From positions 1,255,856 through 1,319,855 of the forward strand of contig NW_027266286.1 of NCBI RefSeq assembly GCF_022045235.1: a stretch of 64,000 bases of DNA. The letters are read 5' to 3'. Positions 4,994 through 56,239 of the stretch are shown in pieces. The position numbers and the translations under genes are program-made. This DNA comes from Haliotis cracherodii (taxonomy: Eukaryota). Each line of letters opens with the position of its first letter. Position 1 is the first letter of the stretch. The notes beneath the pieces were generated by a model. The model was not told where the DNA came from. It ran no database searches and saw nothing but the letters and a program-made list of their open reading frames with translations.

Positions 4994-5427
4994 ACACACC
5001 ATAGTCTTGGTACTATTGTTTATCTTCTCCACGGTGTTTACAAGTTCTGGGAACAGAAGATGGAACATCCTTCCCAGTGTCTTCGTCTTCTGACGTTCTC
5101 CCAGATCACCCAACATCTTCGCTGCCGCAGTCAGCCAATCATCTGCCAGTTCCAGTGATTGACAGACGAGGGGGTGTTTCTTATCCATTGCTTTGCAAAA
5201 CTGGATTCCTTGACTCAGTGATAGAAATATCTCAGACACGTCCATTCTCTGAGATATGGTTGCCAACTCGATTTTACTGGAAAGAATCTTGCCCAATTCC
5301 CTTTCGCCATCTTTGAGCAGACGGTCATCTGTCAGGGGGAATAACTCTGGGCAGAGAACCTCCAAGATGACAAGAATAGTTATCACTGTAGCAACAAGAT
5401 CTTGGATGTCTCCTGTGACACTTGTGC
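4994..5427 (-). CDS. PARP4: PARP4-like terminal coding exon (..TSVTGDIQDLVATVITILVILEVLCPELFPLTDDRLLKDGERELGKILSSKIELATISQRMDVSEIFLSLSQGIQFCKAMDKKHPLVCQSLELADDWLTAAAKMLGDLGERQKTKTLGRMFHLLFPELVNTVEKINNSTKTMVC). Stop TAG at 4991-4993.
   Basis: Acceptor aaaccttttgcag|GC completes the Gly codon from the previous exon. Aligns with human PARP4 C-terminus ..ECLLDLIATMLVLQFIRTRL..PWAFEAIKQASEWVRR..CPRLELGNDWDSATKQLLG. Confidence 0.85.
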
Positions 5428-6049
5428 CTGCAAAAGGTTTGAGACAGAATTACAGCAACACAATTACAACACGTCTACCTAAGCTGAAATCAACCTGTGT
5501 ATGGTTTGAGACAGAATTACAGTAACACAATTACAACACGATGTCTACCTAAGCGGAAATCAACCTGCGTACGGTAGTAATGACAACTCAACATGCAAGG
5601 TAAGGAATCCTGTTTGAAATAGCTACAGATGCTGTGATTAGTCCATCAACTTCACTATTGTCTAAACATATACTCACCACCAAAAGAAACCTATAGAGAA
5701 GTATGTACGTAAAGAAGAGACGTTTCCAATGTGTACCACAGAACTATCAGCCACGGGTTACTGCTGAGTTACTTTATTCTTATCACGATATGCTACATGT
5801 GATTTCCAAACTTTACATCTAGAGTCACGGATCTATGACATCACATGTGATGCGTTCATGAGCGTCCATTCACACAACATAACAGTATGTTCGTTTATGC
5901 ATCGAACCAATCTAATATCTCTTGAATATGAGTAATTCTTCATATATCAACCCAAATGTATGGTATGCGTGTTTCTTTTGGCGGTGAGTATACACATGAG
6001 AACACACAGTGTGTGGCCTTAGTTTGTCATCATGGAAGAAAATAGAAGA

Positions 6050-6835: not shown

Positions 6836-7292
6836 TCGGCCTCTGCCGTGTTACGAAGAAGGAGCACAGACAAGGTCCTTCTTCCACAAGTATATCACAG
6901 CAACAGACAGACTCCCATCATAGACCAATGACAGTCGTATACAGCCTTATGATGGCATCGTGGACTGAGACCAGGATATTTACAGGGAGCTTCGGTGAAC
7001 CAGTGCACAGTTGCTTCCCCTTGGGCATGCCAGGAACCGAGGACCATTGGTTCGAATCTTAGATCTCGCCTTCTTGGCTTGTCAGCACCCGTGCTCGTGG
7101 ATTTCACCCAAGTAGTAAATGTCTAAGACCTGCATCACTTTGGGCTTTCTTTCCACATCAAACTGACGCACTGTGAAATTGCAGACAATTAAATATTCTT
7201 TTGTTTCTTTTAAGAAATATTGTATTGAAAATTCAGTTACATTATTCTCAAAACAAGACAATAAGACTCATGAACTGTTTGGAAACCGTTAC

Positions 7293-7392
7293 CTAGAGAC
7301 CGAAGTCCAGCCTTCATCAACAGTTCCCTGTAGTCATGGCTACGGATGCACAAAGCTGTATCAAGGGCACTGCCGAATCGCCATGATCCATC
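7293..7392 (-). CDS. PARP4: PARP4-like penultimate exon (DGSWRFGSALDTALCIRSHDYRELLMKAGLRSL).
   Basis: Acceptor gtcttttgtcag|GAT, donor TAG|gtaacg (phase 1). Human has DGFWKLTPELGLILNLNTNGLHSFLKQKGIQSL. Confidence 0.8.
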
Positions 7393-7519
7393 CTGACAAA
7401 AGACATAATCACATAAAATGTTGCACACGGCAAGAAACGTAATGCACGAGTACACAGTAGAATATACTCTTCTCATAGCTGAATCAACTTGTACGGAATT
7501 ATTGTAATGACCAAGGGGA

Positions 7520-8270: not shown

Positions 8271-8827
8271 CTGATTCTGTAGTCGGAGGATGATCTGGAT
8301 ATTGTCTTGAGGTATGGGGGCCATGTAGTGGGATGCAGCAGTGGTCACATGATCCCCGAGTTCAAGTCCTGGTGGTGCCGCCCCTCCCATCCCATCTCTG
8401 AACCCTGTGGTGCTGCCACACATCAGACTGCTAGACGGAGATTGGAAGCTGACTGACATCTTTCCTCCATGGGAATCATGAGTGATGCTACTGAGGCCTG
8501 TTGTCTCTTGAGCCACATCCATCAGCTGGTCAGCAAGGGATACTAGGGATGTCCTGTTGATCCCTTGTGACGGGGAAAACAGCTGAGACGCCATGTGTGC
8601 GAAGGGACTAGGTCCCTGGGATATTCCAGAGACCACAAATTCTGCAGAGTGTTTGTTTACTGTGCTAGTCACTCCAACCGCCACTGGTGGCTTGCATATA
8701 GTTCTCGGGAAACCTGGACTGACAGATGGGGCTCCACCTCCTCCTCCAAACAGTAATGGCATTCCATCAAAGACGGGATGAGACGGAGCTGGAACATCGG
8801 CCATAGGTATCTCATCTGGATGGGGCA

Positions 8828-8858
<31 letters not shown>

Positions 8859-10055
8859 CTGTTGCTGTGGCATTCCAAAACCCCTACTCTCATATGTTTG
8901 TGGCATTGCATTCTTTGTTCCAAACAGGGAACTACTTTTCTCAGGAGATGGATATGCAAATATTGGATGAATAGGTAAATCCTGGAATCCTGGGGGTTTC
9001 TGCTTGAAGCTGTCCGTGTGAGATGGCACTTGCACATTACAACCAAATCCAGATCCAAAGGAAGATTTTTCAGCATGTTTAGACGCATCTACTGCTCCGA
9101 ATGACAAACAAGTGGAAGCCATTGTTGAACCACCAAATCCAGATCCAAAGGAGGATTTTTCAGCATGTTTAGACGCATCTACTGCTCCGAATGAGAAACC
9201 TGTTGCAGCCGTTGTTGAACCACCAAATCCAGATCCAAAGGAAGATTTTTCAGCATGTTTAGACGCATCTACTGCTCCGAATGACAAACAAGTGGAAGCC
9301 ATTGTTGAACCACCAAATCCAGACCCAAAGGAGGATTTTTCAGCATGTTTAGACGCATCTACTGCTCCGAATGAGAAACAAGTGGAAGCCGTTGTTGAAC
9401 CACCAAATCCAGATCCAAAGGAGGATTTTTCAGCATGTTTAGACGCATCTACTGCGCCGAATGAGAAACCTGTTGCAGCCGTTGTTGAACCACCAAATCC
9501 AGACCCAAAGGAGGATTTTTCAGCATGTTTAGACGCATCTACTGCTCCAAATGAGAAACCTGTTGCAGCCGTTGTTGAACCACCAAATCCAGATCCAAAG
9601 GAGGATTTTTCAGCATGTTTAGACGCATCTACTGCTCCGAATGAGAAATTTGCTGGCTTTCCCACTAGACTGTCTGCCTGCATACTCTGCGAAGCAGGTA
9701 CCACCATGCCAGAGCTCCCAAATCCAGATCCACGTGTCACATGACTGACGTGTTGGAGTCCCGGCAGTACCACTCCCTCCTTCCTGTCTGGGGGCATGCC
9801 TGAACCACCAACTGTACATCCAAGTGAAAAGTTGATTGGGAAATCCAGTTCTGCTCCACTTGGACTCACGCTCCAACCATCATATGGAGTTCGAAGTAGT
9901 TGCTTCTCTGTCCTTTTGTGCGTCATACCAGCTTGTGTTTCTTCTGCTTCTTGTTCGAGAATGTAAGAACTGTCAATGTCCATCCCGAAGAGATCTTCCT
10001 CTGGCTGTTCTCCCAAGAAGCCAAATGACTTCACGTTTTCTCCCACACCTGTCAT
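8271..10055 (-). CDS. PARP4: Giant low-complexity exon of PARP4-like. Acidic FG motif GEQPEEDLFGMDIDS at the N-terminal end. About 7 repeats of a 40-aa unit (ANFSFGAVDASKHAEKSSFGSGFGGSTTAATGFS), encoded by a 120-bp DNA tandem repeat at about 9050-9660. Q13 run from a CTG-type microsatellite at 8830-8870. Gly/Pro-rich segment. Ends ..HYMAPIPQDNIQIILRLQNQ.
   Basis: Open frame of 595 codons on the minus strand, ending at a strong donor CAG|gtgagt (8265-8270). The tail IPQDNIQIILRLQNQ plus the next exon DGSWRF aligns with human PARP4 VPWTELLSLQTE-DGFWKL. The 5' boundary is unresolved: candidate acceptor acag|GT at 10049/10048, otherwise ATG at 10053-10055. The ORF-track ORF continues artefactually to 8172. 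Confidence 0.65.
9050..9660. repeat. 120-bp coding tandem repeat, about 5 units, inside the giant PARP4-like exon. Encodes the 40-aa FG repeat.
   Basis: Near-identical 120-mers. The plus-strand ORF 9112-9744 is its antisense artefact. Confidence 0.85.
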
Positions 10056-10057
10056 AA

Positions 10058-10500
10058 CATAGCCAGCAAGGTATTATTGGTCGGTGACGATTGTACATAG
10101 CCAGCAAGGTATTATTGGTCGGTGACGATTGTACATAGCCAGCAAGGTATTATTGGTCGGTGATGATTGTACACAGCCAGGAAGGTATTATTGGTCGGTG
10201 ATGATTGTACATAGCCAGCAAGGTATTATTGGTCGGTGATGATTGTACATAGCCAGCAAGGTATTATTGGTCGGTGACGATTGTACATAGCCAGCAAGGT
10301 ATTATTGGTCGGTGATGATTGTACATAGCCAGCAAGGTATTATTGGTCGGAGACGATTGTACATAGCCAGCAAGGTATTATTGGTCGGTGACGATTGTAC
10401 ATAGCCAGCAAGGTATTATTGGTCGGTGACGATTGTACATAGCCAGCAAGGTATTATTGGTTGGTGATGATTATACATAGCCAGCAAGGTATTATTGGTC
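10058..10500. repeat. 39-bp minisatellite, about 11 units (catagccagcaaggtattattggtcggtgacgattgta), immediately upstream of the giant exon.
   Basis: Direct periodicity. Confidence 0.9.
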
Positions 10501-10739
10501 GGTAACAATTGTCCAAACTATTTGTGAAGTGGAATGTCCCGAAGTCACGAGGGCAATCGCGATGACAAATTAAATTTTAAAGTTGAAAGGGATACAGTGA
10601 TTATCTAGATACATCTACTTGTGTCAACAGTTTAAATAAAATGAAAAAAAATAGGATTATCAACACATTTAACCATATATAACTATATATTGTATGCACT
10701 TTACCAGTTTATTTACACGTCTGGCAAATGTACTGTACA

Positions 10740-10900
10740 TTGAGTGAATGAGTGAGTATGGTTTTACGTCACTTTTCGCAATATTCCAGCAATAACACGG
10801 CGGGGGACACCAGAAATGGGCATCACACATTGTCGGAAATCGAACCCGTGTTTTTGGGTGGTGAGTGAACGCTTTATCCACTAGGCTATCCGACCACCCC
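10740..10900 (-). mobile_element. SINE family A copy.
   Basis: Sequence identity to the other family A copies. Confidence 0.75.
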
Positions 10901-11689
10901 TATTGTACATTGAACATTCATGATGTGTGTTTTGTCATATAACAAACCAAGTCTTATTTATGATGTATATTAATGTACATTATTGTATATTACTATATCA
11001 TTAGACATATATCTGTATTAAAATAGTTATGGTACTGGTGGAGCCGGCTACAAGGTCAACATCAAGATACAGGATAAAGTTGATATTTCCAATACTGAAA
11101 ATCATGGGTGGTGAGTTGTACACTTGTACGTGTCACGTGGAAGTTTCCCCTCTCGGACACATTGAACATGTCAATATGTAAACATGTTTCTTTCTTTCTT
11201 TCTTTGTTGTTTAACTAGGCACTCTGCTATATTCCAACTATATGACGGCAGTCTGTAAATAATCGAGTCTGGACCAGACAATTCAGTGATTGACATCATG
11301 AGCATCGATCCACGCTATTTGGCTACGATGACATGCATCAACCAAGTCAGCAAGGCTGACTACCCGATCATATTAGTCGCTTCTTACGACAAGCATAGTC
11401 ACTTCTTACGACAAGCATGGGTTCTCTGAAAACCTATTCTACCCAGGTACATCAATCTAACCAAGCTACAGTCCACATGCAATGGTCTATCAACCATGAC
11501 CAAGATGACGGTCTATTGTTACAAGTCCAGGTACACAAGAAGTGTCAGGTCTTGATAACCCCTGGTAATCAGCATTCAACTGCTGTCAACTATTCATCTT
11601 GTCATTAAAATCTGTCGATAACTACATCACCGTTCACACTAACTGACACAATAACGTAGCCAATCTGTCCCATTCCACAGGGCAATCTA

Positions 11690-12225
11690 AGCAACGGCCA
11701 TAGGTCTATGTTAAAGTAAGGGTCTTTAGATCATCTTAGCACTCAACGGTCGTAAGTCTATGTTAAAGTAAGGGACTTCAGATCATCTTAGCACTCAACA
11801 ATCGTAAGTCTATGTTAAAGTAAGGGTCTTTAGATCATCTTAGCACTCAACAGTCGTAAGTCTATGTTAAAGTAAGGGTCTTATGATCATCTTAGCACTC
11901 AACGGTTGTAAGGCTTTGTTAAAGTAAGGGTCTTAAGATCATCTTAGCACTCAACAGTCATAAGTCTATTTTAAAGTAAGGGATTTCAGATCATCTTAGC
12001 ACTCAATGGTCATAAGTCTATTTTAAAGTAAGGGTCTTAAGATCATCTTAGCACTCAACAGTCATAAGTCTATTTTAAAGTAAGGGTCTTAAGATCATCT
12101 TAGCACTCAACGGTCATAAGTCTATGTTAAAGTAAGGGTCTTAAGATCATCTTAGCACTCAACAGTCATAAGTCTATTTTAAAGTTAGGGACTTAAGATC
12201 ATCTTAGCGCTTAGAACGCTTTGTC
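11690..12225. repeat. 60-bp minisatellite, about 9 units (agtaagggtcttaagatcatcttagcactcaacagtcataagtctattttaa).
   Basis: Direct periodicity. Confidence 0.9.
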
Positions 12226-12297
12226 AAAAAGAGTCCTGGGATCCAACTTGGCATTTTTTCTTTAAAATGTTGGTACTAAAAGCTCAAGTTATCTTAC

Positions 12298-12802
12298 CTG
12301 CCGAGTATCGACTTCTGTCTCTGTCTCTACTTTTTGATCTTGATCTTCTGTCCCTTGCATCTTCAACACTTCCAGTTGGAGGAGGCATTGTCCTGGAGGA
12401 GTCCGGAGGTGGGGGTGGAGGAATGGCAGCACTCATGTTGGCGCTCCTGGCAGCTGCCAAGGGAACTGAAGAACCACCCCTGATCAATCCACCAATTTTG
12501 GCCCCCAATAACAATGATCTAGTTTTGGTCAAAGCGTCATGTTCTATGGGAGGTGGAGGTGGTGGAATATGACTTCTGGAAGGGGGAGGCGATGGAGGGG
12601 GGGGGTACATGACTTCTAGCAGGTGTAGGGGGAGGGGGAGGCACAGACACCCCAGAAGGGGGTGCTTGTGCTGCTCCAGGGGGTGGCGGGGCCCACCTGC
12701 TATGTCTGGAAGTGGGGGGTGGTGGGGGTGGGGGCACAGCACTTCCAGTAGTTTTGGGAAGCTTTTTTGACAGCTCATTTTTTGCAAGGAATAGTTTTTC
12801 AC
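12298..12802 (-). CDS. Coding-like ORF, frame B, overlapping frame A by 266 nt. Pro-rich, then an RS/RD-rich tail (..EDARDRRSRSKSRDRDRSRYSAG). Ends at a strong donor CAG|gtaagat (12292-12297).
   Basis: Strong GTAAGA donor immediately after an open frame. Frame A and frame B overlap across G/C homopolymer runs, so either a small intron or a homopolymer indel connects them. Confidence 0.35.
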
Positions 12803-13465
12803 TCAATTCAAGCTGGGGGACACTACCCATCCGAGGATCAGGGCGTGTGTCAAATCTCCCACAAAGAAGCTGGGTTGAATATTGAGGCTGGTCAATAACC
12901 TTCTTCAGCTGTGTGCCACCACCTATTTGATTAAGCAGGGAAGCCCGACTAAAACTTCTCGTAGCTTGCATTTTTGAGCATTGGAACAGCTCCCCTACCG
13001 CAGGGAGTGGTGGTGGGGGTGGGGGTGGTGGCATTCTTCCTAATGCCGCTTTTCTGGGCATGGCCTCCTGTCTGACAGACTGCAGTGGCGGCGCAGCTCT
13101 GAAGAATGAATAGATGAATGAACATCCACCCCTACCTCTACCTCTATCCCCACCCCTACCTCTATCCCCAACCCCACCCCTACCTCTACCCCTACTCCCA
13201 CCCCCATCCCCACCTCCACCGTCATCAAACAATCCAAACCCCATATCTTCATCGTCTGACTCCTCTGACTCATCCAACTCGTCATCAAGGCAGCTGGCTG
13301 CCACGCTATCACCCAGGTTGGCTTGTACTGATTCTATGGCTGACGCAATGTCTAAGTCCCCAGTCTTAACCAACATGTCACGCATTCTACGTGGTTCCAA
13401 TTCTTCCAAATTCTCCTCAAAGGGTTCTTCTGGCAACAATTTGCCTGATAGCATATTGGTGGCAT
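12537..13465 (-). CDS. Coding-like exon or ORF, frame A. Encodes an acidic segment (..ASCLDDELDESEESDDEDMGFGLFDD), an RGG/Gly-Arg repeat, poly-Pro, a WH2-like motif (RSFSRASLLNQIGGGTQLKKV), and further poly-Pro runs.
   Basis: Excellent acceptor ttttttgttttag|AT at 13466-13467. Open frame to a stop at 12537. Same strand and inside the PARP4-like span. Could be a lineage-specific disordered PARP4 exon or a nested Pro-rich WH2-type gene. The composition partly follows C/G-rich low-complexity DNA, so the ORF may be over-extended. Confidence 0.4.
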
Positions 13466-16400
13466 CTAAAACAAAAAATGATTAAAAAAGACCATTTGTC
13501 AAGCGCTATCTCCATGCACATAACATGCTCGAAGTACAATGATAATGGGCGATCTTTTTCAATTTATCTTCCCTTCACTAACCCGCTAGGTGCGCTGACC
13601 CGGACGGTCCAACCTTAAACTGACGGCGCATGTGGTATGCGCGATACGAGCACTACTTGTTACTGTGACACCTATAGACAGTTAACTAGTATAACCTTCA
13701 CCTTTGTCGGCAACGGTCACACTTGTGTGTGGACAGCATATCTTTTCGCCTAAACAATGATTTATCTATTGCCATGTCCGGAAATATATGTTCCTTGATA
13801 TAATTATACATCAGGGATGACCACGACTGATTATATTGTATAGTTAACCACTAGATAGGCGTTCGAAGCGATGCGGTGAAATCAGCAGATCGTTCATCCC
13901 AGGTCGCTTTGTTGACGTTTTGCAATCGGCACGGAAAGTGTTGCCCTTGATGTATGAATATGAAAATTAAGTAGATTTTGTATACGTTCCTATATCTATG
14001 TTGTAGCATCGCCGAGCAGGCTACATCATATGCATGCATTTCAGTATGTACAACGGTGAGGCGATACGGTTACGCGAAATGTGAAGGTCTTATGCAACGT
14101 AAAGTTGCCCGTAGCCTCAATGTTGTGAATATTGACAGCAAGACATGTAAGTATTTGTCAGATATATAACAGAGAGCTCTGGTATTCTTTCAGGTTTGCA
14201 GAATCAATCAATTCATTGTGAAAACATTTTTAATTTCTTACATAAGTTACTTTGATCTTGATTAGATCAAAATAGATACAAATTAAATTGAGAAGATTAA
14301 ATTATGCAGTCTTATTCATTTCAGCCAGTCTCTCTAAAATCCAATCCTATTTTTCAGGCAATAATAAATGAATGAAAATTTAAGAAAAAATATACCTTGC
14401 CTGAGTGAATCAGTCAATATGCACAGTGACTAAAATCTTCAGTCAATATACATATTGGGCCTGTTTATAGACACTGACTGTAACATATGTAAGTATAATC
14501 TGTTACATGCAAAAACAAATAACATAAATAAATCCATTTATCTACTTTGAATGAATGTGGGGTTCAATTTGCATTTATTTAACCATCAGAAGATTTGATG
14601 ATAAACTTTCATATTCATATTTTCATATAAAATTCATATTTGCTATATGATAATAATATCTACAAAATATACTTTATACTACAGGTGTCTTGAAGTACTG
14701 TTGAATGAAAATCAGGATACTTAGATACAGCAGGATAGTGTGTTGGTTTGTATGGGAAATAATTTGTCAACATTAAAATAGATACAATGTTACTAAAACA
14801 AGAAAATAAAACAATGATTAAGTTCTATTTATGCATCATACACATTTTGTGGGGTAGTCAGTATAATTTGTTGTTTTTTGGGACACATCTCTGTAATTAA
14901 TTACTATTTTAAGAGCATGAGTATCAGAATTCTGTAAGAAATGATGGATCAACTAATTAACACCTGTGATGACTCAGAGCACTTAATGGTGGGACGTCAC
15001 ATGTTATAAGAGGCAGAATAATATGGGTAAATCTCTTATTTCAATGTATGATGACTGGTATGTATATTGCAACTGAGTAACTGAGTGCTTAGATCTAATA
15101 GATGCATGGTAGATGTTCATTTGGCCTATTTCTAAAAAAATAATATAAATTCAAATATTCAGATGCAACTTTAATTTTGATCTTAAAAGTAACATTTAAA
15201 ATCAGTTGTTTTATTATTTTTAACATTATTTGTTCTTAAAATATTTGTAAAGGTGCAGATGAATACTTACTATATAGATCACTGGTTAAGGCCTGTCAAA
15301 GTTGTCTGTGTGCTGCAAATGTTTGCGTATCACTAATTTTATTAAATTGAAGTCCATGGTAGTATTTGTTGAGATATGAATGCTTGAATTCTTGTGGGAA
15401 ATAACACAAAGGCTGATAAATAAAATGAGTTTGCATTATTTCATCGATGCAATATGTTAGCCCTGACTGACAGAATGCCTCGCTGTTTTCTGACGTAGAA
15501 AATACATTGGCAATATACCATTTTTCATGACCTTTTTCCCGCTATATTCCAAAGTGACAATTCGTCTTGTAGATGAAGACTCAACAGATGTTGATATTAT
15601 AAACTAATAATCACTACAAAATATGTGCTAGTTAAAAATATTCAGTTGTAAACGACCGTTTTTGAACGAAGGTGCAACAGGATAACTCTTTAGCTTGGCT
15701 CCGTCTCTACATGTCAGTAGTTGACGCAGCGTGCATAGATCCGGGAACCAGACCGGAAGCGACAGTTCGGTCCATCGCTTATATCATTTCAATAGGAGAG
15801 TTATTGCCCTTTGGAACAAAAAGATCGCCCATTATAGTAAAAAAAAACATTCCTTTAGAGGACTCAATGATGTCACTATTAAACACATTTTAAATGGAAA
15901 AATTGCCAGTGATTTCATGACATTTGAATAGCCAACCAAGAACGCCACCATACCGTTGTCTACAGTTTTGTGTGTATTTATAACTAAATGAGCATTCTGT
16001 GATGTTATAACTGTTGATTTATTTATTCAAAAGAATTGACTTCAGTTTGTGTTTTTACAGTTATGGAGGTACAACCGTAAAACCTGATGTTTGCACAGTC
16101 TGCACATCGGTTTTTATGTTTATTGCTCCATAAAAGTAAAATGAGTTTAAGTCAATTCTTAAATATCTATCTACCTCTGATAACAATATCTAGTGAGTGC
16201 TGTCTCTATATAGCGGTAGAATGAGGTTGACCCGTGAAGATCCGGGGTAGAATAGGTCTTCAGCAACCCCTACTACTTGCCGTAAAAGGCGACTATGCTT
16301 GTCGTAAGAGGCAACTAACAGGATCGGGTGTTCAGACTCACTGACTTGGTTGATGCATGTCATCGATCCTAGTTACATGGATCGATGCTCATGATGTCAA

Positions 16401-16744
16401 TCACTGGATTGTCTGGTAAAGACACGATTATTTACAGACCGCAGTCATAAAGCTGGATTATTGCTGAGAGCGGCGTTAAACAACAAACAAACGAACAAGA
16501 ATGAGGCTTTGAATGACTATAACATGACTCAAGGCACAACCAGGGATTAACCTTTCAGCTTCCACACAGGTTCATTAATCAAAAACATGATGCAGATTCT
16601 AAAAACATCAAAAACCACAATTATCACCAATTTAGAAACATATGCTTTTCAATGAATAATTCTACTTCAATGTTAAACTGAGTTCAGTGTCAGTGTTGGG
16701 AGTCCGAGACGTGATGGAGCCATGCCATGTGGGCAGTAGACTGG

Positions 16745-17020
16745 GAGTGAGTAAGTGAGTGAGGGAGGTGGGTTTAACCCCGCTTTTAACAGTATTCCAG
16801 CTTCATGTGGGAGGAAAGCCAGATGTGATGCAGGTCTCAGACGTTTACCACTTCGGTGAAACCCACGAGTACAGGTACGGTGCTGACAAACCTAGAAACA
16901 TAATCAGGGCGAACCGGGATTCGAACCCTCAATCATAGGTTTCTGGCATGCCCAAGGGATGCAATTCTGCGCAGAGAATTGCGGCACATTAGACGACTGG
17001 GCCACCTGTGCCCCCCCTAT
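16745..17020 (-). mobile_element. SINE family B copy.
   Basis: Sequence identity to the other family B copies. Confidence 0.75.
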
Positions 17021-17679
17021 TGCAATACAGCTGTCTAAAGTGTGATATATTACAACAAAAATCAACTATTACTGAGTACCCTTAGAATTGGCAAGGTCAA
17101 GGTGAGAATCAAGGTGAAGTTCAAGGTGAGGTCAAGGCAAATTAACCTCAACCATTGGGGCCTATTACAAACCGTATTGCAATGCGATAGACATTCTTGT
17201 ATGAATTTGCAACAAATAATTACCATCCTCAGTGTCTTCGGAAGTTGCATATACTCCAGCATAACCTCTTCTTCTGCAACGAAGCAAAATATTTGAGTAT
17301 ATCATGTCTCAGAATAATCAATATTGATATGTTATTGATATGTTGTGATGGATGTAAGGGTCAAGACATGAGGGACATAAATACAACATGCAAGGTCTGA
17401 TGAATTTGGATATGATGCTAGGGACATGTCCTCATCAACACTGTCATAAGGCAGTGTAATTTATTGTTAAACAATGTTGTAATTGTATAACAATGTTTCT
17501 GCTGAGATTCAGTAGAAGTTGATAGCATTGTGTTTTGACAATAATTAAATCTCAGGAATGTATTACCATCTAATGTAAGCAATGATGTGGAAGTTGCTTT
17601 ATCAGCCCAAACTGGCTCCCACAGAAAGATATCCTTGGGTGAGATCAAGTGATTTCTACATTGTAGATATCCCTGTAAT

Positions 17680-17990
17680 AAAATTGCATCACAATGCATT
17701 TACAGACCATTGTGATGTCATTGGTTACCATGACATCACAATCAAATGACATCAATAATGGCGCTGCTTAGATATAGTGAAGCTGTTAGCAGTACTTTTT
17801 ACATTAAAGACACTGCTTTTTACTGTCTACAAAACTAAAAAGTTGAAAGAATGATGTTGGGTGATAAATAAAATCTCACCCTCGTTTTTTTAATATCAAA
17901 TATATCAAAACTCGTTGATAAAAGTGGAAAAACTCCTCGGCAAGCCTTGGAGTTTTTCAAATTTTATCAACTCCCAATCTATCGGTGATT
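17680..17990. repeat. Dispersed repeat family D copy, about 300 bp with an internal palindrome atcacaatg..cattgtgat. The second copy is at 35440-35760.
   Basis: About 80 percent identity between the two copies, including flanking ..cccacag.aagatatc..gggtgagatcaag. Confidence 0.6.
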
Positions 17991-19134
17991 ATGTTAAAAC
18001 ATACTCAATAATATAATGGAAAAGAATTTTGATGATTGGAATAAATAGCATCTTAAATGACTGTTTAAATAATATATTCTGATATGGTGTTATTTCAATT
18101 GCAGGTTTTACCAAAGATCTTCTAGATAAAGATTACCATAACCAGGGCCACCTTTGTGAATTGTCGGAGACTTTTTTTTGCATTGAAAAATTTGATAAAA
18201 AAACATTAAGGTTTCGCCCGAATTCGTTATTTCCATCGCAGAAACAATTATGGTGACATTTAATTGTCAAACTACAACAAATATAACTTTTAAGAAGTCA
18301 AAGTATGGCAGTTATGTATATATCTATCCATTTTCTGTCAACTAAGGTTTGTTTCAAGGTGTCAGTAGCGGTAATATGATCGTGGTTGCTGTAAATAATG
18401 GTGAGTTGGTAAAGCAGACCTTATGGAACGGGGTAAACGGAAGTTGTAACTACCAGATGGACACCAAATTTAGTGTAAATCTTATTGAATGACAGTTTGA
18501 TAAAAATGAATAAAATGGATTACTGGGGTACGTAGATTATAAACCTGAGTCCAGATATAGAATTAAACAGTTTTTATTACTGATGGTGTAACGACAGGAT
18601 TAACTTGCGTAATTCAATACAGACTTGTTGATAATCTATTTCCGATGACAGATCATGACTAGACATAGTTTTAGGTTGGAGGTCCGGCTTATCTATAGCA
18701 CATAATATTTTGATACAGTTCTAAAGGAACCAGTTAATACCTCGGCTTATCTATGAGATCAGCTTATCTCCGGTCATATACAGTATAAAAGTGGGGCAAG
18801 AGCGTGCCTCTCTCATCTCTCGGGGCATTTATGTTGTTTTTGCAACGCTGTGTACAAGGCTGAAGATTGGAGAGGTGATCATGGCACAATGTTTCCACAT
18901 TCAGTATTTAAGGTTCTACTGGAAGTATTCATATCTCACAAATAAGTATTTGGACAAAATGGCATTGGGCAGCCATACATATTTTTCAATTATGCCTTGA
19001 ACAATGACGAAATTTCCATGAAGTTCAAGTAATCTCAACCTCTAAACCTGTTTTTCGAATCAAAGATGTCTGCCTGGCAGCCATGCTGAATACCTTGAAC
19101 ATGACCTTATTTCATCCTGTCATCCATTTCTGCA

Positions 19135-19320
19135 TAGTTCTCAGCTAAAATATGTTTACAGAGTATTGACCTGATATATACTTACAGAGTTCTGGCCTGA
19201 TGTATATTTACAGAGTATTGACCTTTTATATACTTACAGAGTATTGACCTGATATATATTTTCAGGGTATTGACCTTATATATATTTATAGAGTATTGAC
19301 CTGATTATATATACCGTAAG
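19135..19320. repeat. 30-bp minisatellite, about 6 units (gagtattgacctgatatatacttaca).
   Basis: Direct periodicity. Confidence 0.8.
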
Positions 19321-19559
19321 TTCCTGGTACATCTAAGGAAAGCTACTCTGCACGGTGAATTGTTGTGCCTTAGACAACTGGGCCAACTGGGCCCCCTACA
19401 ATAGTTAGAAGTGTGAAACAACCTGAAACGGTGTGACATGCTTGGTGGTTCCTCATCAAAAGAATCGTCGTCACATAACTCCAAGTCAAAGTCCAAATCC
19501 TCATCGCTGTTTCCCAGTCCAAAGTAGCCCCCTGACTCCTCCACAATGTCCATCTGCAC

Positions 19560-20880
19560 ATCTGTTCACACAAGATATCTCAGTCAACATCTACACATGG
19601 ATATCTCAGTCAACATCTACACATGGATATCTCAGTCAACATCTACACATGGATACTGCCTACATCCACACAGGGATATTGCCTACATCTACACATGGAT
19701 ATTGCCTACATCTACACATGGATATTGACCTACATCTACACATGGATATTGACCTACATCTACACATGGGTATTGCCTACATCTACACATGGATACTGAC
19801 CTACATCTACACATGGATATTGACCTACATCTACACATAGATACTGACCTACATCTACACAGATACTGACCTACATCTACACATGGATATTGACCTACAT
19901 CTACACATGGATATTGACCCACGTCTACACATGGATATTGACCTACATCTACAAGATATTGACCTACATCTACACATGGATATTGACCTACGTCTACACA
20001 TGGATATTGACCTACATCTACACATAGACCTTGACTTTTATCTACACATGGATATTATCCTACAGTGTTAAAGGGGATCTGTGCTTCTCACTGTCAACAT
20101 CTACATATGGATATTATCCTACAGTGTTAAAGGGGGTCTGTGCTTCTCACTATCAACATCTACATATGGATATTATCCTACAGTGTTAAAGGGGGTCTGT
20201 GCTTCTCACTGTCAACATCTACATATGGATATAATCCTACAGTGTTAAAGGGGATCTGTGCTCCTCACTGTCAACATCTACATATGGATATTATCCTACA
20301 GTGTTAAAGGGGATCTGTGGTTCTCACTGTCAACATCTACATATGGATATTATCCTATAGTGTTAAAGGGGGTCTGTGCTTCTCACTGTCAACACCTACA
20401 TATGGATATTATCCTAGTGTTAAAGGAGATCTGTGCTTCTCACTGTCAACATCTACACATGGATATTATCCTACAGTGTTAAAGGAGATCTGTGCTTCTC
20501 ACTGTCAACATCTACACATAGACCTTGACTTTTATCTACATATGGATATTATCCTACAGTGTTAAAGGGGATCTGTGCTTCTCACTGTCAACATCTACAT
20601 ATGGATATTATCCTACAGTGTTAAAGGAGATCTGTGCTTCTCACTGTCAACATCTACACATGGATATTATCCTACAGTGTTAAAGGGGATCTGTGCTTCT
20701 CACTGTCAACATCTACACATGGATATTATCCTACAGTGTAAAAGGGGGTCTGTGCTTCTCACTGTCAACATCTACACATGGATATTATCCTACAGTGTTA
20801 AAGGGGGTCTGTGCTTCTCACTGTCAACATCTACATATGGATATTATCCTACAGTGTTAAAGGGGGTCTGTGCCCTAATT
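19560..20880. repeat. Compound satellite: a 24-bp unit (atctacacatggatattgacctac), about 20 copies at 19560-20040, then a 59-bp unit (..atggatattatcctacagtgttaaaggggatctgtgcttctcactgtcaacatctac), about 14 copies.
   Basis: Direct periodicity. The plus and minus ORFs at 19433-20886 are repeat artefacts. Confidence 0.9.
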
Positions 20881-23649: not shown

Positions 23650-23793
23650 CATCTCCATTTCCATCAACGCCTCCTCCTCCTCTGCCTCTTTGTCCACCTC
23701 CCAGCTGACGTACTCAAGGATGTCCATGCTATGACCCTCCACCAGCTCAATCATACTGGTGCCTTGTGACTTCCGCAGGCCTTTCTTCTCATC
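23650..23793 (-). CDS. PARP4: PARP4-like exon 26 (DEKKGLRKSQGTSMIELVEGHSMDILEYVSWEVDKEAEEEEALMEMEM).
   Basis: Acceptor catttgccag|GAT, donor ATG|gtagtg. Resembles human PKVSELIAKEDVDFLPYMSWQGEPQEAV. Confidence 0.7.
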
Positions 23794-30594: not shown

Positions 30595-32159
30595 CTGTTC
30601 AGGGGAGGCTTCAGTTTATTCTTTCAGAAAAATAATGTTTTCTACATTTTTTGCTTTCACATTTATTAAATACACAAATAGGGTGAACATTAAATGAAAA
30701 TATTGTTTGAGATAATGTACTGTTTTAGTCACCTCTAACTAAACGGGAGCCACTGAGGTGGATGGCTGAGAATATAATCACTGATAAATTCTGCCTGGAC
30801 AAACAGGATGTTGTCATCACAGGTTGTATATACAGTCAAGTCTTGTTAATCCGACACTCGTTAATCAGACAATCAGCTTTATCCGACACTAATGATGGGA
30901 ACTGATTAAATCAGAGCTATTTAGACCTGCTAATCCGACAGTCTTGCAACATTAGCCACAAAGAAGCAGCTTTCTTGAGCTTTGCGGTACCAATTTCAAA
31001 TTGGCGACTTCCATTCCAGACTTTGCTTTTTAAAGTATTTTGAATCAGTCCTACAGTCCATAACAGTTTTGTGTTAAGCTTCAGAGGTTGCATGATCAGA
31101 AAACATACTCTGCTCGCAATGTAATATAACAATATGCATATTTCATTTTTTTATTACGTTTTTGTTTCATTATCTATTGTGTAGTTGTCTGATTATCAAC
31201 CACGAACATTGATACTACTTAATTTTGTTTATCTGACATACTCGTTAATCCAACATAATCATATGCAACCAACCATGTCGGATTAACGGGACTTGACTGT
31301 ATGTTATTTTCTCTCGTATTTCTGTAAGTATGCTATGTTTCTAAACAGGTCGTTCTGTTTCGTTTCTGTGTGAAAACAGTTCGCACACACACTGCTTAAC
31401 TTCGCGGATACATATCTAAAAGCATGAAAAAAGCATGAATATGCGCCACGTGTCGACCACACTGTGTCGTTGTAATTTCAGTTTTGCTTGAGAGATAGGA
31501 TAGGCAACATCTTTCACCACTCTTGTCATTTTGTAATCGCTATTGTAATAGAAATTTGGGAATTAAGAAAAGTTTGTAAATGTGAATTAGAGTACCATAG
31601 TAATTGTCGTTGGTAATTGTTGCTTTAAACCAAAATAAAACTTGTGTAAATGATTTAGAGTTCTTTGCCTGCCTATTGCGCTGGTACTGTTTCTGCTGAC
31701 CACTGCCACTGATGCATGACCATCAATGGCCCATCGTCATGTGCACAGTGCACAGGTCACAAATCAGGTGAAGCTAGGCAATGTCGGTCGTGGAGAGTCC
31801 TTGGATGGGTGACCACGTGTCGGCTCCTGCCAGTTTCTCGGGCTTTGGTCCTGTCCCCCACTGAAGTACAAGTAACAAATGTGGCGTCTCCTTGGGCAAG
31901 TGACTTTGTTCGAAATGTGACTCTGTTCACCCAGCAGGGAATGGATACCATGTAGGATGAGATGGCAATGTGGGTGTTAACTTTCTAGCGCCTAACAGAC
32001 AGGTTGGGTTGTATACTCCCCAGGGAGCTGAGAATGATTCTTGAGTGCACACTGATCCAGTGACCAGGGTAATAATGGCACTTTGAACATGCCCCTGAGT
32101 GGTGTGGAAATATGGGCAAATATGAATAGTCTATTATTATTATTATGATTAAGGCCTAC

Positions 32160-37849: not shown

Positions 37850-38110
37850 CAAGATTACAGCACTTTTTATAGCGACGTGCATGCATGTGTGTGTGTGGCT
37901 GCTTGTACTAGTCCAAACAGATGCAGTTTTTTTAGTGCTAGCCAACTGAGATACCATGCTGCAGTTTAACATGAATACCCCACTAAGACACAGTATACTG
38001 ACTCAGAGCCGACCAGCCCCTTAGTGCCGAGCGCCAGGCAGGTTAATAACAAGTACCATCTGTTAATGTTTTTGGTATGACACGGCCATGAATCGAACCC
38101 TGGTGTACCG
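37850..38110 (-). mobile_element. Repeat family E copy. Its tRNA-like tail is continuous with the 39-bp minisatellite at 38110-39095.
   Basis: Similar to 23190-23520. The tail motif gacgctctaccactagaccatggaggcggtctcc is reiterated about 25 times downstream. Confidence 0.6.
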
Positions 38111-39095
38111 CTCTCAGGGCAGACGCTCTACCACTAGACCATGGAGGCGGTCTCCGAGTGGATGCTCTACCATTAGAACATGGAGGCGGTCTCCAGGCGG
38201 ACGCTCTATCACTAGACTATGGAGGCGGTCTCCAAGTGGTCGCTCTACCACTAGACTATGGAGGCGGTCTCCGGGCGGACGCTCTATCTCTAGACCATGG
38301 AGGTGGTCTCTGAATGGACGCTCTCCCACTTGACCATAGTGGCAGTCTCCGAGCAGACGCTCTACCACTAGACCATAGAGGCCGTCTCCGAGCAGACGTT
38401 CTACCACTAGACCATGGAGGCGGTCTCTGAATGGACGCTCTACCACTAGACCATGGAGGCGGTCTCCGAGCGAACTCTCTACAACTACAACATGGAGGCG
38501 GTGTCTGAATGGACGCTCTACCACTAGACCATGGAGGCGGTCTCCGAGCGAACGCTCTACAACTACAACATGAAGGCGGTGTCTGAATGGATGCTCTACC
38601 ACTAGAACAGGAAGGCGGTCTCCGAGTGGATGCTCTTCCACTAGACCATGGAGGCGGTCTCTGAGCGGACGCTCTACCACTAGACCATACAGGCGGTCTC
38701 CGAGTGGACGCCCTACCACTAGACCATGGAGGCGGCCTCTTAGCCGACGCTCTACCACTAGACGATGGAGGCGGGCTCAGAGCGGACGCTCTACCACTAG
38801 ACCTTAGAGGCGGTCTCCAAGTGGATGTTCTACCACTAGACCATGGAGGCGGTCTCGGAGCGGACGCTCTACCACTAGAAGATGGAGGCGGTCTCCGAGC
38901 AGACGCTCTACCACTAGACGATGGAGGCGGTCTCCGAGCAGACGCTCTACCACTAGACGATGGAGGCGGTCTCCGAGCAGACGCTCTACCACTAGACGAT
39001 GGAGGCGGTCTCCGAGCAGACGCTCTACCACTAGACGATGGAGGCGGTCTCCGAGCAGACGCTCTACCACTAGACCACGGAGGCGGTAACCAACA
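38110..39095. repeat. 39-bp minisatellite, about 25 units (gacgctctaccactagaccatggaggcggtctccgagcg), derived from the tRNA-like D-arm/acceptor segment of the adjacent family E element.
   Basis: The unit contains TCTACCACTAGACCATGGAGG, the reverse complement of the tRNA motif CCTCCATGGTCTAGTGGTAGA. ORF-track ORFs at 38114-39193 come from this repeat. Confidence 0.8.
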
Positions 39096-39306
39096 ACATC
39101 GGTACATGGTATAATATGTACCATCAATCTTAGGACAGCTTTATTTTGAACAGCACTGTAGCTCACCTTAGCATATATATATTCTACAGCCAAACTGTTC
39201 AGATATTTGTCAATTTCAATAGTCTGATATTAGATATTGAAACTTACCTTTATGGATAAATTTGTTCATTAGAAATAAATCAAAGATTCAAGAGAATGCT
39301 TCTTAC

Positions 39307-40379: not shown

Positions 40380-41018
40380 CTGCAGAAAAGTTCCACTACA
40401 CGTCAGTTGGAGTCACACAGTCCTTTATAAAGATCTTACAACACTCGGTAATAAGGAAAATTGGGCCTAAAAAGTATAGGTATACCATTTTTGGTTGTGC
40501 CTTGTTTTACAAGACAATTACACTCATTAATCTCCGCATATTAAAAGAATCCCACAGAAACAGGAATACAAACATCATTGTATTTCATTGTGTCCAGTGA
40601 TACTTATGTGGAAGATTGACAAGCAATGTTCCAGTTCCTCATCTCCAGTTGATTCACCTGAAGCAATATCATGTTGTCTTTGACTGAGCATTATAAGTAC
40701 CAGCATTTCTTCCTGAAACCCAAGCATGGGGGGTGTGCATCACAATAAAATATTGTAAACTACAATGTCCTTATAAAAGAAATTCATGCTGTATTCTGGA
40801 ATATCAAGCAAATGTCATCTTGCCAATGACACAAGTTCTACATTCATGCAGTGTTCAGACACATGGTGATTGATGTAGGTATTTACAGTATGGGATGGTA
40901 GTCGTCCTGTATTCGTGGGACTTATTAGACACATGGTGATTGATGTAGGTATTTACAGTATGGGATGGTAGTCTTCCTGTAGTCGTGGGACTTATTATAA
41001 ACAATCTGTGTACCCCAC

Positions 41019-41152
41019 CTGTGCAGCCAGATCCACCAGTTTGGCGCGGATGTGAACCCCTACCAGCTCCACGGCCATCTTGTTGCCCTCGGACACCAGA
41101 CCTGCCTCCACCTTCGACAGGGGGTCCTCCACACCCAGCACGTCAGACAAAT
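41019..41152 (-). CDS. PARP4: PARP4-like exon 13, linker before VIT (DLSDVLGVEDPLSKVEAGLVSEGNKMAVELVGVHIRAKLVDLAAQ).
   Basis: Acceptor ttcctgccacag|AT, phase continuous with exon 12 (G+AT=D). Donor CAG|gtgggg. Human has GLQDASGNLVPLEDVHIKGRIIDTVAQ. Confidence 0.7.
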
Positions 41153-41159
41153 CTGTGGC

Positions 41160-42425
41160 AGGAATAGGGAATATAGGGAACACGGTGAATATAGGGAACA
41201 CAGTGAATATAGGGAACATGGTGAATATAGGGAACACAGTGAATATAGGGAACACAGTGAATATAGGGAACACAGTGAATATAGGGAACATGGTGAATAT
41301 AGGGAACATGGTGAATATAGGGAACACAGTGAATATAGGGAACACAGTGAATATAGGGAACACAGTGAATATAGGGAACACGGTGAATATAGGGAACATG
41401 GTGAATATAGGGAACACAGTGAATATAGGGAACACAGTGAATATAGGGAACACAGTGAATATAGGGAACATGGTGAATATAGGGAACACAGTGAATATAG
41501 GGAACACGGTGAATATAGGGAACACAGTGAATATAGGGAACACGGTGAATATAGGGAACATGGTGAATATAGGGAACACAGTGAATATAGGGAACACAGT
41601 GAATATAGGGAACACGGTGAATATAGGGAACACGGTGAATATAGGGAACATGGTGAATATAGGGAACATGGTGAATATAGGGAACACGGTGAATATAGGG
41701 AACACAGTGAATATAGGGAACATGGTGAATATAGGGAACATGGTGAATATAGGGAACACAGTGAATATAGGGAACACACTTAATATAGGGAACACAGTGA
41801 ATATAGGGAACATGGTGAATATAGGGAACATGGTGAATATAGGGAACACAGTTAATATAGGGAACACAGTGAATATAGGTAACACAGTGAATATAGGGAA
41901 CACGGTGAATATAGGGAACACGGTGAATATAGGGAACACACAGTGAATATAGGGAACACAGTGAATATAGAGAACACGGTGAATATAGGGAACACAGTGA
42001 ATATAGGGAACACAGTGAATATAGGGAACACAGTGAATATAGGGAACACAGTGAATATAGGGAACACAGTTAATATAGGGAACACAGTGAATATAGGGAA
42101 AAAAGTGAATATAGGGAACACAGTGAATATAGGGAACATGGTGAATATAGGGAACACAGTTAATATAGGGAACACAGTGAATATAGGGAACACAGTGAAT
42201 ATAGGGAACACAGTGAATATAGGGAACACAGTGAATATAGGGAACATGGTGAATATAGGGAACATGGTGAATATAGGGAACACAGTGAATATAGGGAACA
42301 TGGTGAATATAGGGAACATGGTGAATATAGGGAACACAGTGAATATAGGGAACATGGTGAATATAGGGAACACACAGTGAATATAGGGAACACAGTGAAT
42401 ATAGGGAACACAGTGAATATAGAAC
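41160..42425. repeat. 21-bp minisatellite, about 60 units (gtgaatatagggaacacagtg), intronic between exons 12 and 13.
   Basis: Direct periodicity. Five large ORF-track ORFs (40995-42518 and others) are artefacts of it. Confidence 0.95.
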
Positions 42426-42479
42426 AATAAGAACTGATGAGATGAGGAGCATATTGATGGACAGCTGTAGAAACTGGTA

Positions 42480-42765
42480 GAGTGAGTGAGTGAGTGAGTG
42501 AGTTGGGTTTAATGCCACTTTAACAGATTTCCAGTTATATCACAGCGTGGGAGTATTGATGCAGGTCTGGGACGTTTACCACTTCGATGAAACCCATGAG
42601 CACAGATATGGTGTTGACAAACCTAGAAACATAATTGGGGCGAACCGGAATTTGAACCCACAATCAAAGGTTTCTGGCATGCCCAAGGGACGCAACTCTG
42701 CACAGCGAATTACGGTGCCTTCGACAACTGTGCCACCCGTGCCCCCTGCGACTGGTAGCGGCCCC
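42480..42765 (-). mobile_element. SINE family B copy, intronic, about 130 bp below PARP4-like exon 12.
   Basis: Sequence identity to the other family B copies. Confidence 0.75.
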
Positions 42766-51954: not shown

Positions 51955-52494
51955 GTTGCCCTAGCTGAAGCAGACGTGATTACAGCCATCAGTACACATC
52001 TTCCTCATCCTACAGAGGGCACGAGTGGCCCAGTCAGTGGTGCTGCAATTTGCTGTGCAGAGTTGCGTCCCTTAGGCACGCAAGACACCCATTACCATAT
52101 TCACTGTAATAAGCGTCCTGCGCTTTTATTAAAACCGTAAGAAATGTGTTAAATTTGTTGTCTGTCATTAAGCCGTAAAGAACAAACATGCTTCAAATGA
52201 AACTGAAACGTTTGTGATAATAACTACAAGGCTATTGTATACCCTTAGTCAGTCATATCGAGTTCCAAGTTTAGCAAGAGGGACTTATAATGATCACTTA
52301 CAGATTGGTGTAAAAGTTGGACAGGGGGCACTTAATGGGGCGGGGTGCTTAATAGAGTGAATATGGTATCATGGGTTCGAATCCCAGAATCACTCGTATT
52401 GTGTTTCTAGGCTGGTCAGCAGCATATCCGTGCTTGTGGGTTTCACTACAGTGGTAAATATCTAATATCACTTTTAGCTCTCCTCCCACATGAA

Positions 52495-55400: not shown

Positions 55401-55855
55401 GTCTGTAGTATGTACTATGTAGAGTCTGTAGTATGTACTATGTAGAGTCTGTAGTATGTACTATGTAGAGTCTGTAGTATGTAGTATGTAGACTGTAGTA
55501 TGTAGAGTCTGTAGTATGTAGTATGTAGACTGTAGTATGTAGACTGTAGTATGTAGTATGTAGACTCTGTAGTATGTAGTATGTAGACTCTGTAGTATGT
55601 AGAGTCTGTAGTATGTAGACTGTAGTATGTAGACTCTGTAGTATGTAGAGTCTGTAGTATGTAGTATGTAGACTGTAGTATGTAGTATGTAGAGTCTGTA
55701 GTATGTAGTATGTAGACTGTAGTATGTAGACTGTAGAATGTAGTATGTAGAGTCTGTAGTATGTAGTATGTAGAGTCTGTAGTATGTAGTATGTAGAGTC
55801 TGTAGTATGTACTATGTAGAGTCTGTAGTATGTACTATGTACTATAGTCCTATTG
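52495..55855. repeat. About 3.3-kb satellite array of variable 21-30-bp units built from gtagtatgtagagtctgtagtatgtactat, located 0.5 kb upstream of the PARP4-like start codon.
   Basis: Direct periodicity. ORFs at 52349-54357 are artefacts. Confidence 0.95.
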
Positions 55856-56239
55856 CAATTAAATACATTTGGAATTTGAGCAGTCCTATAAAGTTTCTAT
55901 CAAGTCATAAAACAAATTTCATCTCTCTGCTTTAACACATGGTATTATTTTTATCAATCTAGCAGTTACCAATTCCCCTCAGTTTGTAGTGCCAATGTCT
56001 TGACCCAGACTTGCACCATAGAGCCTTGTCCCTCTGTGTTTCCTGCACGACCATGTTTCCCTACTAGAAGCCCTGTACCTACAAGCTGCTTCTGACAAAC
56101 AAGCCAGGTCAGGCAAAGAGGAAATGAATGATCCTTTTCAGACACCAAATAATGAAGTTCACCAGTGCTGCACTGTGCATGAAGAACGAGACAACGGGTG
56201 TCAAACAAACATTCCTTATAGTGTGCCAAGAAACAATGT

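Follow-up and report, generated by a model that had tools for sequence, protein, structure and literature searches.

Ribosomal stalk tail copied internally in the linker of a mollusc vault PARP, a probable and conserved docking mimic

A stretch of 64,000 nucleotides from Haliotis cracherodii (contig NW_027266286.1, positions 1,255,856 to 1,319,855; the window) carries a mollusc gene for PARP4, the vault PARP, and the long linker of the encoded protein contains an internal copy of the C-terminal tail of the ribosomal P-stalk. Judged by sequence comparison, this copy is likely an old and selected element that acts as a mimic of the stalk tail, with predicted binding to proteins docking there, and the sole defined motif among three acidic minus-strand peptides of the linker (sites 1 to 3). 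A preliminary description of the window had presented these peptides as a triplicated motif matching a segment of human PARP4. This is mostly unsupported; the real feature behind it is the conserved stalk-tail copy at site 2, which the preliminary description had not recognised as such. Sites 1 and 3 consist of common acid-rich linker sequence in which FG or GL dipeptides occur by chance; site 1 is at most a decayed second copy. A conserved internal stalk-tail copy in the vault PARP linker is apparently undescribed: the 53 papers found with MGFGLF were all on ribosomal P proteins and nowhere mentioned PARP, at an incomplete literature coverage that makes an earlier description possible.

Six-frame translation confirmed the peptides of all three sites on the minus strand, in the same reading frame of the window. 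Their positions deviate by 7-27 bases from those in the preliminary description, which, taken literally, yield translations in other frames.

19449-19553, minus strand: site 1, MDIVEESGGYFGLGNSDEDLDFDLELCDDDSFDEE
13221..13274, minus strand: site 2, DESEESDDEDMGFGLFDD (also given as LDESEESDDEDMGFGLFDDGGGG), including the ESEES serines just upstream of the motif
13224..13259, minus strand: core of the stalk-tail copy within site 2, SDDEDMGFGLFD, an internal copy of the P-stalk C-terminal tail
9966-10013, minus strand: site 3, GEQPEEDLFGMDIDSS

The core of site 2 has one extra acidic residue in comparison to SD[D/E]DMGFGLFD, the stalk-tail consensus of P0, P1 and P2 (PMC3280276). Scoring against this consensus gave 26.3 for site 2, equal to human P1, 9.0 for site 3, 7.3 for site 1 and 12.0 for the human-type segment discussed below, with the best chance match per protein at about 10-13. 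The window has a single occurrence of the strict motif MGFGLFD, and 200 shuffles had none. Among PDB chain sequences, 26 matches were obtained, all of them P0, P1 or P2 and all at the chain C-terminus, in the alignment ESEESDD-DMGFGLFD. The Pfam family Ribosomal_60s (PF00428) was matched at profile positions 73-88 of 88 (E = 0.0057). The residues DESEES directly before the motif align to ESEES of human P2, and in P proteins these upstream serines are targets of CK2. Phosphorylation of the P-stalk in general is treated in PMC11624264. Neither a P1/P2 dimerisation domain nor a P0 body was found, as the Pfam match is confined to the final 16 positions of the profile and the upstream sequence has no P-protein similarity. 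The copy has no free C-terminus, because an RGG box follows directly. The site thus has the sequence that defines a stalk tail and lacks both the free C-terminus and the body of P1, P2 or P0, so it is regarded as a mimic rather than a stalk protein. A processed ribosomal P pseudogene was rejected as explanation: similarity to the hinge or N-terminus of P proteins is missing upstream, no stop codon follows the motif, and the motif is conserved in distant PARP4 proteins. Readings as FFAT, LC3-interacting or WASP-type VCA motif, assessed on the sequence only, fit less well in spacing and key residues than the 16-residue stalk match.

Relatives were collected in a full HMMER scan of 1.84 billion representatives with the post-VWA and linker segment of Tegillarca as query, which led to full-length PARP4-like proteins. 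Their linkers were scored with a matrix derived from the stalk consensus, not from PARP4 sequences. In 11 of 65 PARP4-like linkers the motif scored above all 200 shuffles of the respective linker; a gap separated carriers (at least 17.5) from the others (at most 15.1), and no N-terminal part reached carrier level. The carriers are four bivalves, amphioxus, four dictyostelids and two further sequences, one of them transcript-like. Copies in the named species are as follows.

Argopecten irradians: EEESDEEEEMGFGLFEDD, in all 8 isoforms
Tegillarca granosa: ESDEEDEDLEFGLFGD
Saccostrea cucullata: EESEEEDVDMAFALFDD
Magallana gigas: DESDVDDLGFNLFGDD
Branchiostoma belcheri: ESESDEDMEFGLFDQ
Dictyostelium purpureum (P0176): EESD[GE]DMGF[GD]LFGD, four spaced copies at residues 1977, 2014, 2063 and 2106, the first being EESHDDIGFGLFDE
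Cavenderia fasciculata (P0239): DSSEGDMGFDLFGD and EEDDGAMGFGLFDY, two copies at residues 2032 and 2138
Synstelium polycarpum: ESSDNDMGFGLFGD
Heterostelium album: DDSDEDMGFDLFGD

Across the copies F, L and F were invariant and the two glycines varied; all copies in PARP4-like proteins were internal. The tail profile of Ribosomal_60s was matched by D. purpureum with 43.7 bits, above the cutoff of 28.1, by Cavenderia with 25.7 bits and by the carrier P0187 with 15.1 bits. P0187 has an uninterrupted open reading frame (ORF) of 1856 codons on 5.7-kb contigs of two sequencing runs, which fits a mature, assembled mRNA. Local alignment to 14 other PARP4-like proteins gave z = 3.4-9.7 for the site 2 region, always at the motif; neither the exon of site 1 nor the first part of the site 3 exon had a counterpart in these proteins (z at most 2.3). 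Since PARP4-like proteins of bivalves, amphioxus and dictyostelids have the stalk-tail copy in the same linker, it appears to be old and selected. A chance resemblance would make site 2 an acidic low-complexity sequence that looks like a stalk tail and has no specific function. The surroundings are indeed acid-rich and disordered, and the E-values of the 16-residue match are modest; however, MGFGLFD never appeared in the shuffles, the motif recurs in 11 independent PARP4-like linkers, each with P at most 0.005 and with F, L and F invariant, and one dictyostelid match lies above the Pfam gathering score. This explanation is close to refuted already and is considered very improbable. A similarity no better than that of acidic low-complexity sequence, named in the preliminary description as a refutation, is seen for sites 1 and 3 with their background scores, not for site 2.

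The assignment of the region to the disordered linker of a PARP4 orthologue, already made in the preliminary description, was borne out by gene context and exon structure. In the larger minus-strand ORFs, Pfam placed BRCT at about 51.3 kb, the regulatory domain of PARP at about 47.2 kb and its catalytic domain at about 44 kb. The order on the minus strand is BRCT, PARP_reg, PARP, VIT, VWA, linker and C-terminal region, which is the domain order of PARP4. By tblastn with PARP4 of molluscs, fishes and mammals, colinear exons were traced from 51.9 to 24.4 kb, and the C-terminal region was located at 5.06-5.43 kb; the closest exons were those of Lottia, Saccostrea and Tegillarca (55-85 % identity). 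A query built from the conserved exons retrieved PARP4 proteins of molluscs, fishes, cnidarians and others. On the basis of domain order and colinear matches, the window contains one mollusc PARP4 orthologue (5060-51954, minus strand). Its long linker, which connects the VWA region with the vault-anchoring C-terminal region, holds all three sites. PARP4 has been treated as vertebrate-only in a structural paper of 2025; this mollusc gene, whose full domain order extends to a vault-binding-like C-terminal region, places PARP4 beyond the vertebrates, and so do database proteins of cnidarians, dictyostelids, a sponge, an echinoderm and a nemertean. The exons and features from the linker to the end of the gene, in the direction of transcription, are the following.

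23650..23793, minus strand: conserved PARP4 exon immediately before the linker, SMDILEYVSWEVDKEAEEEE, with the end ATG/gtagtg in phase 0; corresponds to the EDVDFLPYMSW region of other PARP4 proteins
19400..19553, minus strand: candidate site 1 exon of uncertain status, acceptor tgtgcag/ATG in phase with the upstream exon, donor ATT/gtaggg keeping the frame
12298..13465, minus strand: site 2 exon, acceptor ttttgttttag/AT, donor GCAG/gtaaga
13125..13220, minus strand: RGG box directly after the stalk-tail copy, with 6- and 24-base periods at 13126-13220 (tandem repeat finder)
12897..12947, minus strand: WH2-like motif RASLLNQIGGGTQLKKV, flanked by polyproline (Pfam WH2, E = 0.0082, 16.2 bits, under the cutoff of 23.1)
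12597..12605, minus strand: C9 homopolymer interrupting the reading frame of the exon with site 2; a run of eight Cs would leave it unbroken, ...ARSHVPPPPSPPPSRSHIPPPPPP...
8271..10048, minus strand: large linker exon of 592 codons, acceptor ttatgacag/GT, donor AATCAG/gtgagt, with site 3 near its 5' end
9042..9648, minus strand: tandem repeats in the large exon with a 30-residue unit, SFGAVDASKHAEKSSFGSGFGGSTTAATGF (90 bases, 6.7 copies, 94 % matches by tandem repeat finder)
about 7288-7395, minus strand: further exon of the region similar to the C-terminal one that interacts with the major vault protein (MVP) in other PARP4 proteins
5060..5428, minus strand: last PARP4 exon, similar to the C-terminal MVP-interaction region (tblastn: Argopecten E = 3e-11, P0082 E = 1e-5, Tubulanus E = 1.5e-5 and 0.003, Potamilus E = 0.025)

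The site 2 exon encodes, in this order, the acidic stretch, the stalk-tail copy, the RGG box, polyproline, WH2-like motifs and an end rich in arginine and serine (RS-like), and it joins the next exon in frame (G+GT). The C9 run is probably an assembly error or a polymorphism; with the one-base correction, four linker exons form a continuous open frame of 1081 residues. The RS-like stretch, RDRRSRSKSRDRDRSRYS, is located at 12302-12355 on the minus strand. RGG boxes and RS-like stretches are both typical of RNA-binding proteins. The sequence RASLLNQIGGGTQLKKV fits the pattern LLxxIxxGxxLKKV, which follows a short helix in WH2 motifs binding actin monomers, and a low-confidence AlphaFold2 model has a helix at residues 173-179; close LLxxIxxGxxLKK motifs were observed in the linkers of Cavenderia (P0239, residue 1924) and Heterostelium (P0157, residue 1965). 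The single-sequence AlphaFold2 model of the site 2 exon had a mean predicted local distance difference test (pLDDT) value of 46 with no residue above 70, weak evidence that is consistent with disorder. The repeats of the large exon were not recognised as FG nucleoporin by Pfam (Nucleoporin_FG, 19.5 bits, under the cutoff of 32.2); similar SFG-rich repeats are present in P0187.

The preliminary description had also proposed the sites as exon candidates carrying a conserved short linear motif. For sites 2 and 3 the exons have good splice signals and matching phases, and for site 2 the motif is conserved; sites 1 and 3 are not conserved. Site 1 is ambiguous as an exon. It is the sole acid-rich open stretch in an intron of 10 kb, one observed against 0.02 expected, which favours an exon. 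An alternative pairing (acceptor 19561, donor 19423) keeps the frame as well, but a non-acidic frame would be read. The ORF of site 1 is unique sequence between minisatellites at 19150-19312 (26-base unit, 6 copies) and 19587-20873 (24- and 59-base units, 20 and 14 copies), and this position between two arrays casts doubt on site 1 as an exon.

The recurrence that had suggested one motif at three sites was quantified with a loose regular expression, which is post hoc, as it was written after the sites had been seen. In the six-frame translation it had 8 occurrences versus 5.1 ± 2.5 in shuffles, a chance level. In the predicted 1081-residue linker three sites were present against 0.2-0.45 expected (nominal P about 0.005); with site 2 left out, the remaining pair had P of about 0.04-0.07. 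According to the first reading of the window, an acidic G-h-F/L-G motif had been triplicated by segmental duplication in the linker and is common to human PARP4 (SEDFEEDGLGVL). The excess of loose-motif sites in the predicted linker speaks for it, as do the multiple stalk-tail copies of dictyostelid PARP4-like proteins, a possible gapped alignment of site 1 to EESDGDMGFGLFGD, and the resemblance of the trailing DDDSFDEEP of site 1 to DDDESFDELP after the motif in Saccostrea cucullata (z = 2.3). On the DNA level, however, the sites have only 10-11-base words in common, and no second copy of any of them exists in the window; with scores of 7.3 and 9.0, sites 1 and 3 do not rise above background, and they lack counterparts in other PARP4 proteins; the expression stands at chance in the six-frame translation; and the human-type segment is absent from camel. 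Triplication of a shared motif is therefore judged quite unlikely.

The match to human PARP4 proved weak. The human-type segment was read in the chimpanzee-lineage PARP4-like fragment P0110 (ISEDFEEDGLGVLPAF), not in the human linker itself, and this chimpanzee-type segment (ISEDFEEDGLGVLPAF, EDFEEDGLGVLPAF), taken for the human segment EDFEEDGLGVL, had a score of 12.0 against the stalk-tail consensus (P = 0.065 versus shuffles), at the edge of the background. It is absent in camel, where the corresponding sequence differs. Some fishes have variants near that position, shortly after the conserved DVDFLPYxSW element: EEEDMDMGFYLAD in Lates, CGFALFDD in lungfish and DSDFSLFG in shark. The human segment could be a decayed remnant of the motif.

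As a mimic on a flexible tether, the stalk-tail copy would offer a docking peptide to proteins with a pocket for the stalk tail. Candidate partners are the translation GTPases eEF2 and eEF1A, the kinase GCN2, and ribosome-inactivating toxins such as ricin, trichosanthin and the Shiga toxins; binding would bring the docked proteins to PARP4 and to the vault. PARP4 is anchored in the vault by its C-terminus, with disordered regions extending into the lumen (PMC12280208). Trichosanthin and Shiga-like toxin dock on the 11-mer SDDDMGFGLFD (PMC2632931; PMC3280276). Foreign stalk-targeting toxins, for which the copy would be a bait, are a plausible partner class to which we give somewhat less than an even chance.

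Alternatively, the copy may recruit eEF2, eEF1A or GCN2 to the vault, by predicted binding, a tentative reading that we hold possible at about one chance in three. Such recruitment could hold or silence enclosed ribosomes, or present the factors to the PARP domain for ADP-ribosylation. The stalk tail is a known binding site of EF2 and EF1A (PMC5887453, PMC6791870). GCN2 is activated by the stalk, and hydrogen-deuterium exchange mass spectrometry located the interaction on domain II of uL10, not on the tail (PMC6421407). Vaults of Dictyostelium contain 80S ribosomes with a fixed orientation; of 79 ribosomal proteins, 69 were enriched near vaults (PMC13100048). Host factors are an attractive class due to these enclosed ribosomes and since several copies, e.g., the four of D. 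purpureum, are reminiscent of the ribosomal stalk with its five tails. However, the tail binds factors and not ribosomes, thus the enclosure is not explained by the tail alone, and the motif was lost in many lineages and replaced by unrelated host-protein pieces, which is unexpected for a core role in translation.

Acidic-hydrophobic peptides are promiscuous binders, and a real motif with another partner was considered as well: a groove of MVP or, in self-regulation, of PARP4's own VIT/VWA domains, a pocket of the LC3 or NTF2 type, or an Arp2/3-type partner in concert with the WH2-like motif nearby. Here and in two dictyostelids, the stalk-tail motif is indeed accompanied by WH2-like motifs. 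Still, the agreement with the stalk tail covers 16 residues, the ESEES serines among them, and goes well past a generic acidic-hydrophobic pattern; a tryptophan as in WASP-type acidic motifs is missing; and WH2-like motif and stalk-tail copy are 90-240 residues apart, in either order. Another partner of this kind is improbable.

Several observations weigh against a selected stalk-tail mimic in this gene. The motif is followed in frame by DGGGGDGGG, the RGG box and about 900 more linker residues, so that the copy is internal, whereas true stalk tails always end in a free C-terminus; ricin at least contacts the last residues of the stalk tail (PMC6822507), which makes the internal position the main caveat. 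The E-values of the window peptide are modest (0.006 in Pfam, 0.04 in the PDB), due to the short match. The frame of the site 2 exon depends on the one-base correction at the C9 run. Searches of an index of 5.8 billion proteins with the site 2 exon and with the joined linker exons yielded neither a transcript nor an annotated protein for the linker; this index seems to be devoid of long proteins, because all 120 listed matches of the conserved-exon query had at most 1111 residues. The scoring matrix was an ad hoc construction. Among the 65 linkers, the motif is absent from most PARP4 lineages, including tetrapods, gastropods, unionid mussels, sea urchin, Hydra and sponge, and is therefore dispensable. 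Its distribution fits common descent as well as repeated convergence.

In many phyla, PARP4-like proteins have linkers with diverged internal pieces of abundant host proteins, combined in a lineage-specific way. Most of these matches were above Pfam gathering scores or had strong BLAST E-values.

Actin residues about 2-65, 61-79 % identical to human beta-actin: Hydra, Mytilus, Magallana, Saccostrea cucullata and one more (P0145, P0128, P0123, P0027, P0189)
Synaptobrevin SNARE motif: lungfish (4 of 5 isoforms; none by BLAST in X5), Saccostrea cucullata, B. belcheri (under the Pfam cutoff) and one more (P0132, P0234, P0027, P0136)
Ubiquitin-like domain ending LRLRGG or a close variant, 37-70 % identity: Sinanodonta, Biomphalaria, Plakobranchus and three more (P0151, P0122, P0127, P0158, P0235, P0236)
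14-3-3, whole or C-terminal part: four dictyostelids, two amphioxus species and others (P0239, P0157, P0176, P0197, P0125, P0136, P0234)
HSP70 piece: Magallana

True actins and ubiquitin are almost invariant among animals. Identities of 61-79 % for the actin and 37-70 % for the ubiquitin-like pieces thus indicate diverged internal copies rather than neighbouring genes merged by mistake. A tblastn search of the window with actin, VAMP2, ubiquitin, 14-3-3 and RPLP2 did not find any of these modules of the other linkers. A weak synaptobrevin-like stretch, GSRQFEIGTAKLKK, at 30971-31012 on the minus strand (E = 0.9) lies in an intron of the VWA region and is probably due to chance.

The pieces suggest a set of baits: the stalk tail for docking of ricin- and Shiga-type toxins, synaptobrevin as substrate of clostridial-type neurotoxin proteases, actin 2-65, ubiquitin and 14-3-3. 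The PARP4 linker as a whole may then be an array of host-protein pieces attacked by toxins or pathogen proteases, mixed and matched by lineage; this is speculative and rather doubtful. Positive selection in PARP4 of primates and bats is confined to the disordered largest linker exon, and contact with pathogen factors has been proposed (PMC4038475). TEP1, another vault protein, has been proposed as immune NADase executioner (bioRxiv 10.64898/2026.05.01.722283). Within the incomplete literature coverage, nothing linked PARP4 to decoys.

Compared with the ribosomal P-stalk tail, the copy has the same 16 residues (ESEESDD[E]DMGFGLFD), the upstream stretch of serines and acidic residues and a disordered context, and dictyostelid PARP4-like proteins have several copies, as has the stalk. 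It differs in being internal, in lacking the P1/P2 dimerisation domain or P0, in its location in a vault enzyme, and in that its binding of factors or toxins is a prediction. The linker of human PARP4 (exon 30, the largest; Daugherty et al. 2014, PMC4038475) belongs to the same family and, as inferred from gene position, to the same region between VWA and the C-terminal vault-binding domain; length and sequence are highly variable, as in the window gene. In mammalian linkers, represented by the chimpanzee-lineage fragment and camel, no stalk-tail copy was recognisable, with EDFEEDGLGVLPAF as the nearest case. The dictyostelid PARP4-like proteins (D. purpureum F0ZTJ5, Cavenderia F4PYX9, Heterostelium D3B7W6) have the same order of BRCT, PARP, VIT and VWA, followed by a linker with stalk-tail copies, and two of them share a WH2-like motif with the window gene. 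They possess a full 14-3-3 after VWA and 1-4 tail copies near the C-terminus, whereas the window gene has one copy near the VWA side and no 14-3-3. Integrated decoys and tripwires, i.e., plant NLR proteins with integrated domains (NLR-IDs) and the linkers of NLRP1 and CARD8, likewise have a variable, disordered and positively selected region with pieces of pathogen-targeted host proteins, a resemblance in the possible mode of action and not a membership. PARP4 is not an NLR, and in the window only the stalk-tail copy is present. We know of no pathogen effector that acts on PARP4 and of no signalling output.

Elsewhere in the window, large tandem arrays at 1-900, 38100-39200, 40500-42500 and 52300-55900 cause long spurious ORFs in several frames; the array at 52-56 kb has a GC skew of about 0.45-0.5. 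A reverse transcriptase fragment is located at 57295-57804 on the minus strand (Pfam RVT_1, E = 3e-9). An exon with a match to the Ashwin family (62497-62757, plus strand, E = 1.5e-9) probably belongs to the gene next to PARP4 on its upstream side.

The function of vaults and of the vault PARP has been open for decades, and a stalk-tail copy in this enzyme is a concrete molecular link that can be tested. It may lead to the translation machinery, with ribosomes recently seen in Dictyostelium vaults, or instead to tail-docking toxins. Together with the other host-protein pieces, the copy offers a mechanistic reading of the positive selection on the disordered region in mammals. If the bait reading is true, the stalk-tail copy of this mollusc would trap or report stalk-targeting toxins at the vault, where the PARP domain, and perhaps the NADase of TEP1, would act.

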